32,000 bases of DNA from Halomicrobium mukohataei DSM 12286 (lineage in GTDB: Archaea > Halobacteriota > Halobacteria > Halobacteriales > Haloarculaceae). The DNA lies in contig NC_013202.1 of NCBI RefSeq assembly GCF_000023965.1, positions 630,001-662,000 on the forward strand, in the 5' to 3' direction. Position numbers and translations under genes: made by a program. Below are positions 753 through 31,962 of the stretch, in pieces. The notes beneath the pieces are model-generated. The model saw nothing but the letters and a program-made list of their open reading frames with translations, was not told where the DNA came from and ran no database searches. The first letter of the stretch is position 1. Each line of letters begins with the position of its first letter.

Positions 753-829
753 TACTGCCGGCGACGACTTCGTGAGGAGAGTCGCCGCCCCCGAGGCGGC
801 GAGGCCGTTCACGCCGACAGCCGGTAGTG
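753..829 (-). mobile_element. degenerate MITE copy C, reverse orientation, upstream of the HAD gene
   Basis: TACTGCCGGC (753-762) and ACAGCCGGTAGT (817-828) match both MITE termini at the correct spacing (77 vs 78 nt). The internal CTTCGT block (768-773) is kept. The central hairpin is kept as TCGCCGCC/GGCGGCGA (782-789/795-802). My hand alignment gives roughly three quarters identity. Confidence 0.6.
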
Positions 830-6869: not shown

Positions 6870-7849
6870 GCACCGACACGCAGGACCTGACCCTCGTCCA
6901 GTCGGTCCGGGACGGACTCTACGGCGAGATGGACCGCGACGAGGACGTGCTCGTGCTGGGCGAGGACGTGGGCGAGAACGGCGGCGTCTTCCGGGCCACA
7001 CAGGGCCTGATCGAGGAGTTCCCCGACCGCGTGATCGACACGCCGCTGGCCGAGGCCGGCATCGTCGGCACCGCCATCGGAATGGCCGCCCACGGCCTGC
7101 GCCCGGTCCCGGAGATGCAGTTCTCCGGGTTCATGTACCCGGCCTTCGACCAGTTGGTGTCTCACGCCGCGCGACTGCGAACTCGCAGCCGCGGGCGCTT
7201 CACCTGTCCGATGGTCGTCCGCGCGCCCTACGGCGGCGGCATCCGCGCGCCCGAGCACCACTCCGAGTCGAAGGAGGCCTTCTACGCTCACGAACCCGGC
7301 CTGAAGGTCGTCGTCCCCTCGACACCCGCCGACGCCAAGGGGCTGCTCGCGGCGTCGATCCGCGATCCCGACCCCGTCGTCTTCCTCGAACCGAAGCTGA
7401 TCTACCGGGCCTTCCGCGAGCCCGTCGACGCCGAGTCCTACACCGTCCCGCTTGGCGAGGCCGCCGTCCGCCGAGAAGGGTCGGACGTGACCGTCGTGAC
7501 CTGGGGCGCGATGACGCGCCCGACCGTCGAGGCGGCCGAGGAACTCGCGCCGGAGATCGACGCCGAGGTGATCGATCTGCGGACCCTCTCGCCGATGGAC
7601 ACGGACACCGTCGTCGAGAGCTTCAAGCGGACCGGTCGGGCCGTCGTCGTCCACGAGGCCCCCAAGACGGGCGGGCTGGCCGGCGAGGTGGTCGCGACGA
7701 TCCAGGAGGAGGCGCTGCTCTACCAGGAGGCCCCCATCCAGCGCGTGACCGGCTTCGACACGCCGTTCCCGCTGTACGCCCTGGAGGACTACTACCTCCC
7801 CGAATCCGCCCGGATCAAAGACGGTATCACAGACGCCTGTGAGTTCTAA
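6866..7849 (+). CDS. 2-oxoacid dehydrogenase E1 component, beta subunit
   Basis: Starts [18 protein letters not shown]...[18 protein letters not shown]. The ATG at 6866 overlaps the E1alpha stop. The longer ORF-track version (6338) is upstream read-through in this frame. Confidence 0.9.
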
Positions 7850-7852
7850 TTC

Positions 7853-9475
7853 ATGTTCGAGTTCGAACTCCCCGACCTCGGGGAAGGCGTCGCCGAGGGG
7901 GAGATCCTCGCGTGGCACGTCGAGCCGGGCGACCGCGTCGAAGAGGATCAGGTACTCGCGGAGGTAGAGACCGACAAGGCCGCCGTCGACGTGCCCTCGC
8001 CGGTCGCTGGCGTCGTCCGCGAACTGCACTACGAGCCCGGCGATATGGTCGAGACCGGTGCCGTCGTCGTGTCGATCGCGACGGACGAGGCCGACGACGA
8101 GACAGACGACGAGACAGACGAGGAAGCGGCGACGACGGCTGTCACCGACGAGTCGGCGGACAGCGAGCCGTCGGCCACGGGCGGCCGCGTGTTCGCGCCG
8201 CCGAACGTCCGTCGGCTCGCCCGCGAACTGGGCGTCGAGATCACTGCCGTCGACGGCAGCGGTCCGAGCGGCCGGATCACCGAGAGCGACGTGCGAGCGG
8301 CCGGCGAAGACGCGGCGTCCGCGGACGACGCCGAGGTCGAATCCGCCGTCAGCCGTGTCGACGACGGTGACGGCAGCGGCGTGAAGTCGGCCGTCAGACG
8401 GGTCGACGACGGCGACGAGGCCGACGACGAGCCAGTCGTGAACTCGGCCGTTGCCGCTGTCGACAGCGACGCCGAGCGGGACCGCTCGCTCGCGACACCG
8501 GCGACCCGCAAGCTCGCGAGCGACCTCGGGGTCGACATCGATGCCGTCCCGACCGACGAGAGCCGCGACGGCGAGCCCTACGTCGACGAGGCGGCGGTCC
8601 GGGCCTTCGCCGCGTCGGCCGACGAGACCGAGCGAGAGCGAGCCGCTGGGTCCACGGGACGGGCCGGGGAGCCGTCGACCGCGGACGGTGCGAGCGGTGA
8701 AGCCGCGAGCGCCGAGGGCCAACGCCGCGAGCCCTACCAGGGAGTTCGGCGGACGATCGGCCAGCGGATGGCCGAGTCCCGCCGGGAGATCCCACACGCG
8801 ACCCACCACGACCGGGCCGTCGTCGCGGGACTGGTCGACGCCCACGAGCGCCTCGAACCGCTGGCCGAGGAGCGCGGCGTGGACCTGACCTACACCCCGC
8901 TGCTGCTGAAGTGCGTTGCCGCGGCGCTCCGGGAGCATCCGATCCTGAACAGCGAACTCGACGCGGAAGCCGAGGAGATCGTCTACCACGACCGGGTCGA
9001 CCTCGGCGTCGCCGCGGCGACCGACCACGGCCTCGTCGTCCCCGTCGTCGAGCGCGTCGACGAGAAGGGACTGCTGGCCATCGCCCGCGAAGTGAACGAC
9101 CTCGTCGCCCGCGCACGCGACCGCGACCTCGCCCGCGAGGAGATGCAGGGCGGGACCTTCACCGTCACCAACTTCGGCGCGATCGGCGGCGAGTACGCCG
9201 ACCCGATCATCAACGCACCCCAGACGGCGATTCTCGGAACGGGCGCGCTGAAAGAGCGGCCGGTCGCAGAGGACGGGGAGACGCGAGCACAGCGAGGGTC
9301 TCCGAACGGCGAGCGGGGAGCACAGCGACCCGCGAGCGGCGAGGTCGTCGCGAGGGCGACCCTCCCGCTGTCGCTCGCGATCGACCACCGCGTGATCGAC
9401 GGGGCCGACGCTGCCCGCTTCGTCAACACGCTCAAGGAGTACCTCGCCGAGCCCAGTCTGCTGTTGCTGGAGTGA
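7853..9475 (+). CDS. 2-oxoacid dehydrogenase E2 (dihydrolipoamide acyltransferase)
   Basis: Lipoyl domain VETDKAAVDVPSP, subunit-binding domain PNVRRLARELGVEI..GSGPSGRI, and catalytic DHRVIDGA. It carries an unusual 20-aa insertion just before the catalytic His motif. Confidence 0.9.
   Translation: MFEFELPDLGEGVAEGEILAWHVEPGDRVEEDQVLAEVETDKAAVDVPSPVAGVVRELHYEPGDMVETGAVVVSIATDEADDETDDETDEEAATTAVTDESADSEPSATGGRVFAPPNVRRLARELGVEITAVDGSGPSGRITESDVRAAGEDAASADDAEVESAVSRVDDGDGSGVKSAVRRVDDGDEADDEPVVNSAVAAVDSDAERDRSLATPATRKLASDLGVDIDAVPTDESRDGEPYVDEAAVRAFAASADETERERAAGSTGRAGEPSTADGASGEAASAEGQRREPYQGVRRTIGQRMAESRREIPHATHHDRAVVAGLVDAHERLEPLAEERGVDLTYTPLLLKCVAAALREHPILNSELDAEAEEIVYHDRVDLGVAAATDHGLVVPVVERVDEKGLLAIAREVNDLVARARDRDLAREEMQGGTFTVTNFGAIGGEYADPIINAPQTAILGTGALKERPVAEDGETRAQRGSPNGERGAQRPASGEVVARATLPLSLAIDHRVIDGADAARFVNTLKEYLAEPSLLLLE
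8342..8470 (+). repeat. degenerate in-frame tandem repeat in the E2 linker (SAVxRVDDGD units); also GACGACGAGACA x2 at 8093-8116
   Basis: Units start at 8342, 8387 and 8444 and share TCGGCCGTCAGxCGxGTCGACGACGG. This looks like typical acidic linker expansion. Confidence 0.6.
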
Positions 9476-9600
9476 AGACAATTCGATCGGCGGACTCTCT
9501 CAGAGTCGCTGTCTGCTCGCGCGCATTTCGAGTCTTCGAGAGATGGAACCTTCGCAAACGTAGATCTCAAGACGAGATACGACGCATCTCTTCGATATAA

Positions 9601-9780
9601 CATCAACAAGAGTATCGACTTTAGCTGGTAAATAGAGCGACAAATCACTATTTTTTATTATAAATAATTATATGAATATTTTTATTATTTGTCGTATTAC
9701 GTACTGGCAATAGAATAATTGGAAATAGTCTTTAGAGAGCGAGAATAATAGAATATGGGCAGACAGACAAAGAAGTCATC
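9601..9780. other. sharply AT-rich tract (53 G+C in 180 nt by my count, about 29 %) between E2 and the PQQ-repeat gene
   Basis: I counted three 60-nt lines directly. The surrounding genes are visibly above 60 % G+C. Confidence 0.9.
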
Positions 9781-11086
9781 ACAAATACGTATGAGAGAAT
9801 TCGCTACCACCCGCCGTGAGATGATTCACAGCGGGTGCTCGTTGACTGGAGCCCTTCTCGGAACAGAAACTGTATCGTCTGCCCCGGGAGGCGATGAGTG
9901 GCAGGAGTTCGGTTTCGATACAGCTAACAGCGGTAACGGCCGGGAGAACCGAGGGCCGTCTACGGACATCGGAACCAGTTGGTCGTTCCAAACAGACGAC
10001 CAGATCACGTCGTCTCCCGCGGTCGTCGACGGGACCGTCTTCGTCGGCAGTCACGACGGAGCCCTCTACGCATTCGATGAGACAGACGGGACACTCGTTT
10101 GGCAGTTCGAAATGACCGAGCGCGTCCTCTCTTCGCCAGCCGTCGTCGACGGGACTGTCTTCGTCGGTAGCAACGGTCCAGACCGCGCCGTGTACGCCCT
10201 CGATACGGAGACGGGCGACGAGGTGTGGAACTACGAGGCGTCGAACTGGATTACAGCGTCGCCGACGGTGGTCGACGGTCACGTCTACGTCGTCGACGAC
10301 AACCAATGGGTGTACGCAATCGACGCTGCCGACGGATCGGAGCGATGGACCTTCGCCGGGACCGATTCGGTCCAACCACCACTCAAGACTGCCGGCGTGG
10401 CTGTCGCCAACGAGACGGTGTACTTCGGCAGTCGGGACAGCACCGTGTACGCACTCGACGCGAACGATGGAACAGAACGGTGGTCGTCGTCGACCGACGG
10501 TCAGATCGGGTCTCCGCCAGCCGTTGTAGATGGGTCGGTGTACGTGGGCAGCGACGACAATCACGTGTATGCCTTCGACGCCGAAGACGGACGTGAGCGC
10601 TGGCGATACGAAACCGGCTACTGGGTGGAAGCGTCACCTGCCGTCGTCGATGGAACGGTGTACGTCGGCAGCTTCGACGGAACGCTGTACGCCCTCTCGG
10701 CTGCCGACGGAACTGTCGAGTGGACGCGAAACGTCGGTGACGAGCTGGAATCGTCGCCGGCTGTGGTCGATGGCACGGTCTTCGTTGGCTCCGACGACAC
10801 GAAACTCCACGCGATTGACGCCGAGAACGGAACCCATCGCTGGGCGTTCCGAACCGGCGGACGCGTCGAGTCTTCCCCCGCAGTAGTAAACGAACGGGTC
10901 TATGTCGGAAGCAACGACGGAAACGTCTACGCGCTCAGTGGCGATGCACGGTCTGACTCGTCGATACCGGAACTGTCGATACGGAATCTGGGGATCGCTT
11001 CGGCCGCTGGCCTGCTCGGCGTGGGGTACCTCCTGCGTAGTCTAAAAACGGATACCGCTGAGACTGACACCAGCAACAGCGAGTAG
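9755..11086 (+). CDS. PQQ-like (BamB/YVTN-type) eight-bladed beta-propeller repeat protein, probably secreted and membrane-anchored
   Basis: Eight repeats of SSPAVVDGTVFVGSxDGxLYAxDxxDGxxxW. The N-terminus has a twin-arginine-like TTRREMI followed by SGC, a possible Tat lipobox. There is a C-terminal hydrophobic anchor GIASAAGLLGVGYLL. Alternative start at 9791. GC is lower than in the neighbouring genes. Confidence 0.85.
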   Translation: MGRQTKKSSQIRMREFATTRREMIHSGCSLTGALLGTETVSSAPGGDEWQEFGFDTANSGNGRENRGPSTDIGTSWSFQTDDQITSSPAVVDGTVFVGSHDGALYAFDETDGTLVWQFEMTERVLSSPAVVDGTVFVGSNGPDRAVYALDTETGDEVWNYEASNWITASPTVVDGHVYVVDDNQWVYAIDAADGSERWTFAGTDSVQPPLKTAGVAVANETVYFGSRDSTVYALDANDGTERWSSSTDGQIGSPPAVVDGSVYVGSDDNHVYAFDAEDGRERWRYETGYWVEASPAVVDGTVYVGSFDGTLYALSAADGTVEWTRNVGDELESSPAVVDGTVFVGSDDTKLHAIDAENGTHRWAFRTGGRVESSPAVVNERVYVGSNDGNVYALSGDARSDSSIPELSIRNLGIASAAGLLGVGYLLRSLKTDTAETDTSNSE

Positions 11087-11125
11087 ACAGAGATCGACGT
11101 CGTCGAAGCTTGCTGGCTGGACTAA

Positions 11126-11203
11126 TACTACCGGCTGTAAATCTGTCACAGATTTCGCCACCCCGGGGTGGCGAATATCTGAACGAAGTTACAGCCGGCA
11201 GTA
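11126..11203 (+). mobile_element. MITE copy A (78 bp), flanked by TAA/TAA direct repeats at 11123-11125 and 11204-11206
   Basis: The TIRs are TACTACCGGCTGTAA and TTACAGCCGGCAGTA, 14/15 complementary. Internal palindromes are AAATCTGTCACAGATTT and TTCGCCACCCCGGGGTGGCGAA. It is 76/78 identical to the copy at 29459-29536. Confidence 0.85.
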
Positions 11204-11217
11204 TAAATCAAGGGATA

Positions 11218-11401
11218 CCGATCATCAACGTCCGACAAACCGCCATTCTCGGAACGGGCGCGCTGAAAGAGCGGCCGGTCGCAGAGGACGGGGAGACGCG
11301 AGCACAGCGAGGGTCTCCGAACGGCGAGCGGGGACCACAGCGACCCGCGAGCGGCGAAGTCGTCGCGAGGGCGACCCTCCCGCTGTCGCTCGCGATCGAC
11401 C
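11218..11401 (+). pseudogene. 184-bp fragment duplicated from the 3' part of the E2 gene (matches 9203-9386), truncated on both sides
   Basis: Ungapped alignment at offset 2015. There are 7 mismatches in 9216-9229 and then 2 mismatches in 157 nt. It lacks the catalytic DHR motif and the whole N-terminal part of E2. Confidence 0.85.
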
Positions 11402-11514
11402 TCAGCACGACGAGTCAACATGCGCTGTCGGGCGAACTGGCAGTCGAGGACGCCCCGGCACCCGGCGACTGATCGACCCGAAGACATTCCTCGGTGACAC
11501 CCCACGGACCGACA

Positions 11515-28926: not shown

Positions 28927-29877
28927 ATGATGTACTTCGAGGGAGCCGGACTCTTGATCGGTGCGATCGCACTCGGGGCGATCCACGGCATCGAGCCGGG
29001 ACACGGCTGGCCCGTGGCCGCCTCCTACGCCCTGGACCAGACGAACAAGTGGGCGTACGGCTTCGCCGCGAGCCTGATCCTCGGCGTCGGCCACCTCGTC
29101 AGCAGCATCGCGATGGTCGGCGCGTTCTTCTACGCCAAGGAGTATTTCAGCCTCACGCAGGTCAACGAGCCGATAACGGTGGTCGGCGGCCTCCAGATTG
29201 GCGGCCCCGTCAGTCTCGTGGCCGGCGTCCTGCTGATCGCGCTCGGGCTCCGAGAGTACCTGTCGGGCCACACGCACGGCACCAGTACCGGCCACGACCA
29301 CGGTCACACACACGGCACGGACGACGGCCACGGGGGGCATCACCACACGGGCACCGACGATCACGGGCACGGAGACGGCAGTCACGAGCACCACAGTGAA
29401 GCCGACGAGCACGCCCAGTCGCGCGAGCGAGCGGACCGCAGCCTCGTCGATCGACTGATACTACCGGCTGTAAATCTGTCACGGATTTCGCCACCCTGGG
29501 GTGGCGAATATCTGAACGAAGTTACAGCCGGCAGTATGAAGACGGTGGTGCCGTTCGTCGGCGGCGGGCACGCGCACGGAGAGATGGACACCGACCGTGG
29601 CCTCCTGGGAATCGCGTGGTTTGCGTTCGTCCTGGGGTTCGCACACGAAGAGGAGTTCGAGATCATCGCACTCTGTGCCGGTTCGGACGCGTGTCTCGAA
29701 CTCATGGGTGCGTACGCGCTGACGGTCGTCGTCGGCATCGTCGGGCTGACGATGCTGTTGATCGCGGGCTACGAGCGCTGTGAGGAGCGAGTCGAGCAGT
29801 ACACGCCGTATCTCCCCGTGTTCTCTGCACTGGTCCTCGTCGTCATGGGGATCGGATTCGTCACCGGCATCTTCTGA
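28927..29877 (+). CDS. NicO/RcnA-like nickel/cobalt transporter with His-rich loop, carrying an in-frame MITE insertion
   Basis: Family motif HGIEPGHGWP. The His-rich loop is GHTHGTSTGHDHGHTHGTDDGHGGHHHTGTDDHGHGDGSHEHH, followed by a second membrane half. A TATAA box at 28894-28898 favours ATG 28927; a TTG at 28918 is the alternative. The reading frame stays open through the MITE. Confidence 0.7.
   Translation: MMYFEGAGLLIGAIALGAIHGIEPGHGWPVAASYALDQTNKWAYGFAASLILGVGHLVSSIAMVGAFFYAKEYFSLTQVNEPITVVGGLQIGGPVSLVAGVLLIALGLREYLSGHTHGTSTGHDHGHTHGTDDGHGGHHHTGTDDHGHGDGSHEHHSEADEHAQSRERADRSLVDRLILPAVNLSRISPPWGGEYLNEVTAGSMKTVVPFVGGGHAHGEMDTDRGLLGIAWFAFVLGFAHEEEFEIIALCAGSDACLELMGAYALTVVVGIVGLTMLLIAGYERCEERVEQYTPYLPVFSALVLVVMGIGFVTGIF
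29459..29536 (+). mobile_element. MITE copy B (78 bp), flanked by TGA/TGA direct repeats at 29456-29458 and 29537-29539
   Basis: The TIRs and internal hairpins are the same as in copy A. It has 2 substitutions relative to copy A. It lies inside the NicO-like ORF. Confidence 0.9.
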
Positions 29878-31921: not shown

Positions 31922-31949
31922 GGGACGGGCTACGCCGCGGGGATGTTTA

Positions 31950-31962
31950 TACTGCCGGCTGT
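31950..31962 (-). mobile_element. solo MITE-type terminus TACTGCCGGCTGT preceded by TTA; either a relic or the end of a longer related element running off the window
   Basis: 13/13 match to the G-variant terminal inverted repeat, preceded by a TNA triplet (TTA, 31947-31949). The downstream sequence (CGGGCGCGAGCG...) does not match the MITE interior. Confidence 0.5.

Follow-up and report, generated by a model that had tools for sequence, protein, structure and literature searches.

A putative family of 78-bp hairpin-forming MITEs in haloarchaea with duplicated TNA targets and frequent residence at stop codons

In a 32,000-nucleotide stretch of the Halomicrobium mukohataei DSM 12286 genome (hereafter, the window), two sequences of 78 bp, termed copies A and B, differ at only 2 of 78 positions (76/78 identical). 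Each is bracketed by a 3-bp direct repeat, TAA/TAA at copy A and TGA/TGA at copy B, and the DNA further out is unrelated between them. This arrangement raises the question of how one short sequence came to occupy two unrelated places, and what kind of element it represents. The best explanation, and very probably the correct one, is that the 78-bp sequences are MITEs, that is, non-autonomous DNA transposons of the cut-and-paste type. The features on which this reading is built are as follows.

11126..11203, + strand: copy A of the putative MITE, 78 bp, in the orientation of the family model, intergenic (nhmmer, 83.7 bits)
11123..11125: TAA target duplication of copy A, left (direct sequence check and family-wide flank identity)
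11204..11206: TAA target duplication of copy A, right (direct sequence check)
11126..11140, + strand: left terminal inverted repeat of copy A, TACTACCGGCTGTAA
11189-11203: right terminal inverted repeat of copy A, TTACAGCCGGCAGTA
11154..11175: central 22-bp palindrome of copy A, TTCGCCACCCCGGGGTGGCGAA, at the tip of the whole-element hairpin
29459..29536, + strand: copy B of the putative MITE, 78 bp, in frame in a NicO-like Ni/Co transporter gene
29456..29458: TGA target duplication of copy B, left (a single TGA at this site in sister genomes)
29537..29539: TGA target duplication of copy B, right
28927..29877, + strand: host gene of copy B, a 316-aa NicO-like nickel/cobalt transporter
753..829, - strand: degenerate family copy, 77 bp, old and GC-enriched (nhmmer, 23.5 bits, E = 1.7e-5)
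31950..31962, + strand: terminal-repeat remnant, an exact 13-mer TACTGCCGGCTGT preceded by TTTA (core match)

The copies and relics in the window

The window is 100% identical to chromosome CP045142.1 (assembly GCA_009217585.1) and ~98% identical to Halomicrobium katesii DSM 19301. Direct sequence checks confirmed the original prediction in its identity value, its 15-bp inverted termini and its two pairs of flanking triplets. Both copies begin with the left and end with the right terminal repeat listed above, which form an inverted repeat with one A/G mismatch. The terminal core TACTRCCGGCTGT, with up to two mismatches allowed, occurs at 8 sites in the window against 0.55 expected from shuffled sequence, and none of 100 shuffles reached 8.

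The family sequences of the window had been read as the traces of four insertion events, a count that stands in part: copies A and B are two clear insertions, and the remaining two are one decayed copy and one ancient remnant. The degenerate copy at 753 was likewise predicted, and the profile match recovers it in opposite orientation to A and B. Its flanks are eroded to CGA/GGG, the duplication having been lost, and it lies 59 bp upstream of the start of a HAD hydrolase gene (888). The solo end at 31950 is a real terminal match, an exact 13-mer in 32 kb being far too unlikely by chance. Because each of the four Halomicrobium genomes under comparison has it in identical form, it is a remnant of some age and no recent insertion; probably it is what an ancient copy left behind after collapsing internally. 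Its neighbours are a tRNA-Gly(CCC) gene, just past the window end, and the start of a DUF1684 gene, and a TATA-like TTTATA lies beside it.

Two observations can be attached to this last site. An element end joined to its TAA/TTA duplication reads GTATAAA (window 31944-31962 and 11197-11210), and at 31950 this TATA-like box precedes the start codon of DUF1684 by ~27-32 nt. Where insertion is into a TNA within a TATA box, the ends of the element may maintain the promoter TATA box or provide one. Just beyond the window (32000; locus L002, 9700-9910), the tRNA-Gly(CCC) gene is followed by two to three tandem partial tRNA 3′ ends plus ~40 bp. The number of these partial copies differs between the window strain and H. 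katesii, and so does the length of the product of the next gene, RNase H-like, at 147 against 226 aa. The partial repeats look like integration remnants at the tRNA.

Copy A lies within a ~2-kb lineage-specific insert that extends from the E2 acyltransferase gene to an ABC ATPase gene (window 9476-11470) and holds a PQQ beta-propeller gene, copy A and a partial E2 duplicate. In a Halomicrobium MAG and in other Haloarculaceae only ~60 bp separate the E2 and ABC genes, and, because the insert is absent from relatives, no empty site for copy A was found among those reached. The duplicate repeats ~185 bp of the E2 3′ region at 94-95% identity (11218-11403 against 9203-9388). Within the catalytic-domain coding region of E2 there is, moreover, an extra in-frame segment of 63 nt (window 9281-9343, with its copy at 11296-11358) that relatives do not have; it consists of two small hairpins with the common loop motif GAGCACAGCGA and may be another tiny inserted repeat within a gene. 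Six further repeats in the insert (window 9979-10916), spaced 120 nt apart and 61-71% identical, correspond to PQQ beta-propeller blades and are an ordinary coding repeat.

At copy B the insertion itself can be read. The third-position GC of the transporter gene is 0.88 upstream and 0.83 downstream of the element in the same frame, so that both sides belong to one real gene. Copy B, together with bases of the duplicated triplets, encodes 27 extra residues, ILPAVNLSRISPPWGGEYLNEVTAGSM, in a variable-length His-rich loop. In orthologues of the NicO-like protein, taken from other genera as well as from three further Halomicrobium lineages, the sequence continues unbroken (...SLVDRL|KTVVPFVGG...). 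None of nine aligned orthologues has the 27-aa insert, which is confined to the protein that the window strain has in common with H. katesii. In the DNA, the site is GATCGAC-TGA-AGACG in Halomicrobium KBTZ05 and LC1Hm, with a single TGA and no element, and GATCGAC-TGA-[78 bp]-TGA-AGACG in the window strain and in H. katesii. Empty-site polymorphism, to which the original prediction had tied mobility, is therefore precise for copy B in two sister Halomicrobium genomes. From the filled and empty sites among these four genomes, the B insertion is placed after the split from the KBTZ05 and LC1Hm lineages and before that of H. mukohataei and H. katesii. A comparison of the JP60 and LC1Hm plasmids for a second filled/empty pair met sequences too diverged at that spot to read.

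Extent, structure and target of the family

BLAST with copy A returned 63 places on 12 plasmids (Halomicrobium, Haloarcula, Natribaculum, Haloplanus). A scan of a genome collection with the 14-mer ATACTGCCGGCTGT, whose listed matches are mostly chance matches in unrelated bacteria, gave at least ~21 usable haloarchaeal loci, and added, among the matches listed, Halovenus, Natronomonas, Salinirussus, Haloplanus and several Halobacteriales MAGs. Far from being confined to the window, as might have been the case had the original prediction failed, the family is dispersed across genera in unrelated contexts. A profile built from ten copies and run on the haloarchaeal loci and on the complete 224-kb plasmid pLC1Hm-01 yielded a first set of 40 non-redundant copies or relics; the plasmid accounts for ~10 good copies plus relics, and ~65 kb of other Halomicrobium chromosomal DNA contained none. 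The unusual density that the original prediction saw in the window is not established by these figures. A two-ended pattern scan of metagenome contigs found at least 120 loci, all from hypersaline samples, which supplied 116 further non-redundant copies. Haloarchaeal genomes, the plasmid and hypersaline metagenomes together thus give ~156 copies (more than 150), a lower bound. There was no family match in the phage collection or in viral contigs.

The family elements have no coding capacity. Their length is 78 bp in 81 of the 116 metagenome copies, which range from 68 to 94 bp, and variants elsewhere reach 160 bp. Conservation is concentrated at the ends: in a 29-copy alignment, TACTRCCGGCTGT(A/C) stands at both termini (columns 1-15 and 66-80), the conserved part measuring 13-15 bp. 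The same termini enclose unrelated interiors at loci L268 (94 bp; 7770-7863), L013 (110 bp; 64-171), L111 (160 bp; 1522-1681) and L173 (2240-2320). With a further element at L092 (7837-7964), these form a series of 81-160 bp in which the interiors are unrelated or expanded and the 13-15-bp termini and TNA duplications are kept. Subfamilies that share termini and nothing of their interiors show the termini to be the cis-acting part, and one transposase specificity appears to serve several MITE subfamilies.

The interior is nonetheless structured. All 78 bp fold into a single long, imperfect hairpin, with a dG of -28.8 kcal/mol as DNA and -45.2 kcal/mol as RNA (z ~ -8.7 each). Two adjacent palindromes had originally been described. 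The 22-bp palindrome, perfect in A and with one mismatch in B, is a family feature, conserved with compensatory changes; the 17-bp palindrome AAATCTGTCACAGATTT is private to copy A, where alone it is perfect. A single whole-element hairpin describes the structure better. Across 29 copies, 86% of cells are paired in the whole-element structure, compared with 28-48% in slid controls. Both-sided changes occur in 13 of the 32 pairs, a covariation score that none of 500 shuffles reached. Symmetric termini are to be expected if one transposase binds both ends. The middle parts of the two hairpin arms are consistently unlike, which gives the element an orientation. The compensatory changes hint that single-strand structure may matter, something that a plain double-strand DDE model does not require.

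Flanking triplets provide the most direct record of insertion. In the first set, 24 of 40 copies carry an identical TNA on both sides, or 26 if two longer variants are included; in the metagenome set the flanks are identical in 87 of 116 (~75%), and 86 of those are TNA. Such triplets call for a control, as the last A and first T of TNA would by themselves lengthen the inverted repeat, and a mere palindrome would produce complementary middle bases. Of the 96 metagenome copies that have TNA at either end, 86 show the same middle base left and right and only 3 show complementary ones, which identifies the triplets as target duplications and not as the ends of a longer palindrome. The predicted 3-bp TNA duplication is accordingly upheld, its length being fixed and its sequence varying between copies. 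In 17 of the 24 reconstructed targets of the first set, the triplet is preceded by C (-1) and followed by G (+1); a symmetrised tabulation of the metagenome set gives 59% for each of these two bases, with C or G at the centre in 92%. From this prevalence of a preceding C, a following G and a central C or G, the target consensus is read as C|T(C/G)A|G.

Positions relative to genes

By the annotation of pLC1Hm-01, 9 of its 17 copies and relics start or end exactly on a stop codon; where a copy abuts a stop codon exactly, the duplicated triplet is the stop codon. A strict definition, which asks for an ORF of at least 80 aa ending at the flank with a third-position GC of at least 0.75 (first set) or 0.72 (metagenome set), places 12 of 40 and 41 of 116 copies at stop codons. 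Overall, about a third to half of the copies lie exactly on one. Individual cases in RefSeq include a copy after a CPBP protease gene on Haloarcula hispanica pHH400 and another after a universal stress protein gene in H. urmianum, and on an H. mukohataei JP60 plasmid a copy stands against the annotated end of a hypothetical-protein gene. As background, in the same loci, stop codons make up 10% of the TNA sites that are non-coding or stop, and 22% of the CTNAG sites. The enrichment over the CTNAG background is ~1.6-fold, real but modest, and may reflect the target motif together with purifying selection rather than active targeting. Orientation relative to the adjacent gene is unbiased (12 same, 18 opposite), which argues against a strand-specific function.

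How such positions could arise is readily pictured. In a densely coding genome of ~68% GC, stop codons (TGA, TAA) would constitute a major class of harmless TNA sites, and an insertion on one of them would regenerate a stop on both sides. Copies at gene ends might then make up a third to half of the total because insertions at these harmless sites survive. This can be extended, as a tentative and rather doubtful proposal, to a 'safe-harbour' MITE: its C|T(C/G)A|G target and 3-bp duplication would let it land on and regenerate stop codons, or on the TNA of a TATA box, and so spread at almost no cost in compact GC-rich haloarchaea, with the hairpin serving mobilisation or being co-opted at RNA 3′ ends, and with stop-less subfamilies occasionally adding peptides.

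Copy B represents the other kind of residence. The ILPAV frame contains TGA in most family members, in both orientations; these two stops are gone from the subfamily to which A and B belong, and this is what allowed B to reside in a gene. Copy B is envisaged to have landed out of frame on a TGA in the length-variable, His-rich transporter loop; with no stops in the relevant frame of its subfamily, the gene would have stayed open and gained its 27 residues. It is the one real case among ~156 copies, the ORF test having placed no other copy inside a convincing gene. A search for further in-frame insertions with a two-frame peptide profile, followed by an exhaustive search of 1.84 billion representatives, returned only proteins of 50-277 aa. 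The ten longest are without a Pfam domain, those inspected resemble spurious ORFs, and one is the window ORF that overlies copy A.

Mobilisation and relation to known elements

The MITE reading of the original prediction agrees with what the family displays: small size, conserved termini, no coding capacity, true duplications of fixed length, empty-site polymorphism at B, and dispersal, the features by which prokaryotic MITEs are recognised. Residence at stop codons and an in-frame insertion with its empty site are attractive details. As for mechanism, a DDE transposase supplied in trans would bind the 13-15-bp terminal inverted repeats (TACTRCCGGCTGTAA) and make 3-nt staggered cuts at C|TNA|G, for the most part C|T(C/G)A|G, and gap repair would leave the TNA duplicated. 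The element would move as double-stranded DNA.

The source of this transposase was sought in several places. The gene and Pfam tables confirm that there is no transposase gene in the window, as had been stated; the window likewise has no tRNA gene and no Rfam family at gathering level. Terminal 13-mers in inverted pairs 130-5000 bp apart, and orphan ends, were collected as traces of a partner, and no autonomous element with these termini was present in the window, in pLC1Hm-01 (224 kb) or in ~1.4 Mb of haloarchaeal loci. All distant pairs and orphan ends resolved to separate MITE copies, variants or relics; the solo end at L111 proved to be a 160-bp variant, and that at L114 lies upstream of an ordinary gene. 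A regex scan of 1.43 Mb for the IS427/IS1031 OrfA motif found none, and a 40-kb stretch of the H. mukohataei JP60 plasmid held no transposase. There is no annotated transposase on pLC1Hm-01, and its unannotated gaps held only an ISH3-like pseudogene, rejected as a partner, as its termini (ACGAGAGCAA.../...TTGCTCTCGT) are unrelated to those of the MITE. This ISH3-like IS with a disrupted transposase (L130 23068-24399, or ~219.1-220.4 kb of pLC1Hm-01) lies ~130 bp from a MITE copy.

Three other explanations deserve consideration beside transposition of double-stranded DNA. The hairpin might have been moved as a single strand by a Y1 transposase of the IS200/IS605 type or RAYT, as with PATEs and REPINs. 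Such a mode would sit well with an element that is entirely one hairpin and whose pairs covary beyond all shuffles, and PATEs are abundant in haloarchaea (PMC3119063). It is nevertheless very improbable here: PATEs and IS200/IS605 elements are without terminal inverted repeats and target duplication (PMC3119063), and the present family has both, with identical triplets at ~75% of copies and, at copy B, a TNA that is found once when the site is empty and twice when it is filled. No conserved 5′ tetranucleotide is seen besides the duplicated TNA. PATEs and REPINs are, moreover, recognised by subterminal palindromes only, a description that the family does not fit.

The same hairpin, with its low RNA free energy (z = -8.7) and its covariation, could instead be a host structured RNA or regulatory element (a 3′-end stabiliser, a terminator or a small RNA) that was spread by duplication and kept for a function at gene ends, where the enrichment directly after stop codons would place it. 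What speaks against this, and makes it quite unlikely, is the indifference of the copies to the direction of the adjacent gene, the target duplications and empty site that indicate insertion, the location of copy B within a coding region, and the decay and collapse of copies. In Rfam there is no gathering-level match, the best relaxed score being 22.8 bits against a threshold of 90, with plant microRNA hairpins only. A secondary, acquired function of some copies is possible. That A and B should belong to no family, and be alike by chance or through gene conversion, an assembly artefact or another local event, might be entertained from the window, which has only two intact copies. The census refutes this: related copies, more than 150 of them, come from genomes, plasmids and metagenomes that are independent of one another, and the same loci recur in independent assemblies and read sets, leaving the notion with a negligible probability. 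Cut-and-paste transposition of a MITE thus continues to be the preferred reading.

The type of enzyme can be approached by analogy, from the duplication and the target. The original prediction had suspected an IS5 or PIF/Harbinger type of partner; both the TNA duplication and the C|TNA|G target fit this, and the partner itself was not found in the ~1.4 Mb. The TNA duplication suggests a transposase of the IS1031 group in the IS5 family, which produces exclusively 3-bp direct repeats at 5′-TNA-3′, typically TGA (PMC12016507), and which shares with the MITE short terminal inverted repeats of ~15-17 bp. The sequences of the termini, however, are unlike: the IS1031-group terminus quoted there, GAACCTGTCTAGTATCT, does not resemble TACTRCCGGCTGTAA of the MITE, whose hosts are archaea. 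The MITE termini begin with TA, whereas the one IS1031-group terminus compared in this respect, that of ISLrh (GAACCTGTC...), begins with G (PMC12016507). The target, for its part, matches that of the NuwaII elements of the PIF/Harbinger-related PHIS superfamily, in which the site is C|TNA|G and the central TNA is duplicated (PMC4482050), exactly the same signature. Those elements are eukaryotic, though, and the centre of the MITE target is mostly C/G, not A/T, with no PHIS-type transposase linked to it. PIF/Harbinger elements duplicate TWA, and short hairpin-forming (Tourist-like) MITEs are their common derivatives; Harbinger termini and those of other IS5 elements also start with G.

Closer to the hosts, Haloquadratum walsbyi contains MITEs, SMRs and PATEs, transposase-free small mobile repeats of which some are mobile without an intact genomic partner; PATEs have neither termini nor duplications, and SMRs have no duplications (PMC3119063). 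The supplements of that study (PMC3119063) gave no match to the MITE termini. With its inverted termini and target duplication, the present family fits the Haloquadratum MITE class, and no sequence relationship to it was found. The Correia elements of Neisseria offer a bacterial parallel. At ~100 bp each, they amount to a single long, imperfect palindrome bounded by inverted termini; they are plentiful close to the ends of genes and are able to provide promoter-like sequences or RNA structure. They duplicate TA, not TNA, and their termini are other than those of the haloarchaeal MITE. Rickettsia palindromic elements (RPEs) reside in frame in protein genes, adding a peptide and leaving the gene intact (PMC10969869). 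Copy B resembles them as an in-frame palindromic insert that added a peptide and did not destroy its gene. In-frame residence is, however, the rule for RPEs and the exception in the haloarchaeal family, which does not belong with them on this count.

A literature search by sequence string and by topic returned no description of this MITE family. For archaeal MITEs, a 2024 review names Sulfolobus, Halobacterium, Haloquadratum and no more than a few further taxa (PMC10969869). In an automated census of 2024, two MAGs, one from an unclassified member of the Haloarculaceae and one from Halovenus, rank with the archaea richest in MITEs (PMC11602168); as these taxa match those found here, copies of the family are probably present in bulk catalogues. 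Archaeal MITEs being poorly described, a family with defined termini, target and empty site should aid the annotation of Haloarculaceae, and it explains short spurious 'hypothetical proteins' and assembly breaks. The insertions can serve as presence/absence markers of strain history, and Haloarcula hispanica, which carries the family, is a model organism in which mobilisation could be tested. Stop-codon residence and the in-frame insertion into a transporter loop illustrate how mobile DNA persists where genes are densely packed.

One further form may bear on the fate of these elements. A palindrome of 12-14 bp, TACTGCCGGCAGTA, of the form (T/C)ACTGCCGGCAGT(A/G/C), joins the two termini at the CCGG that they have in common; there are four instances in 1.4 Mb (L130 11954, L163 6457, L222 869 and L241 4823). 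Two of the four sites stand beside TGA and one beside TCA. These fused termini could be deletions by hairpin collapse or the footprints of MITE excision.
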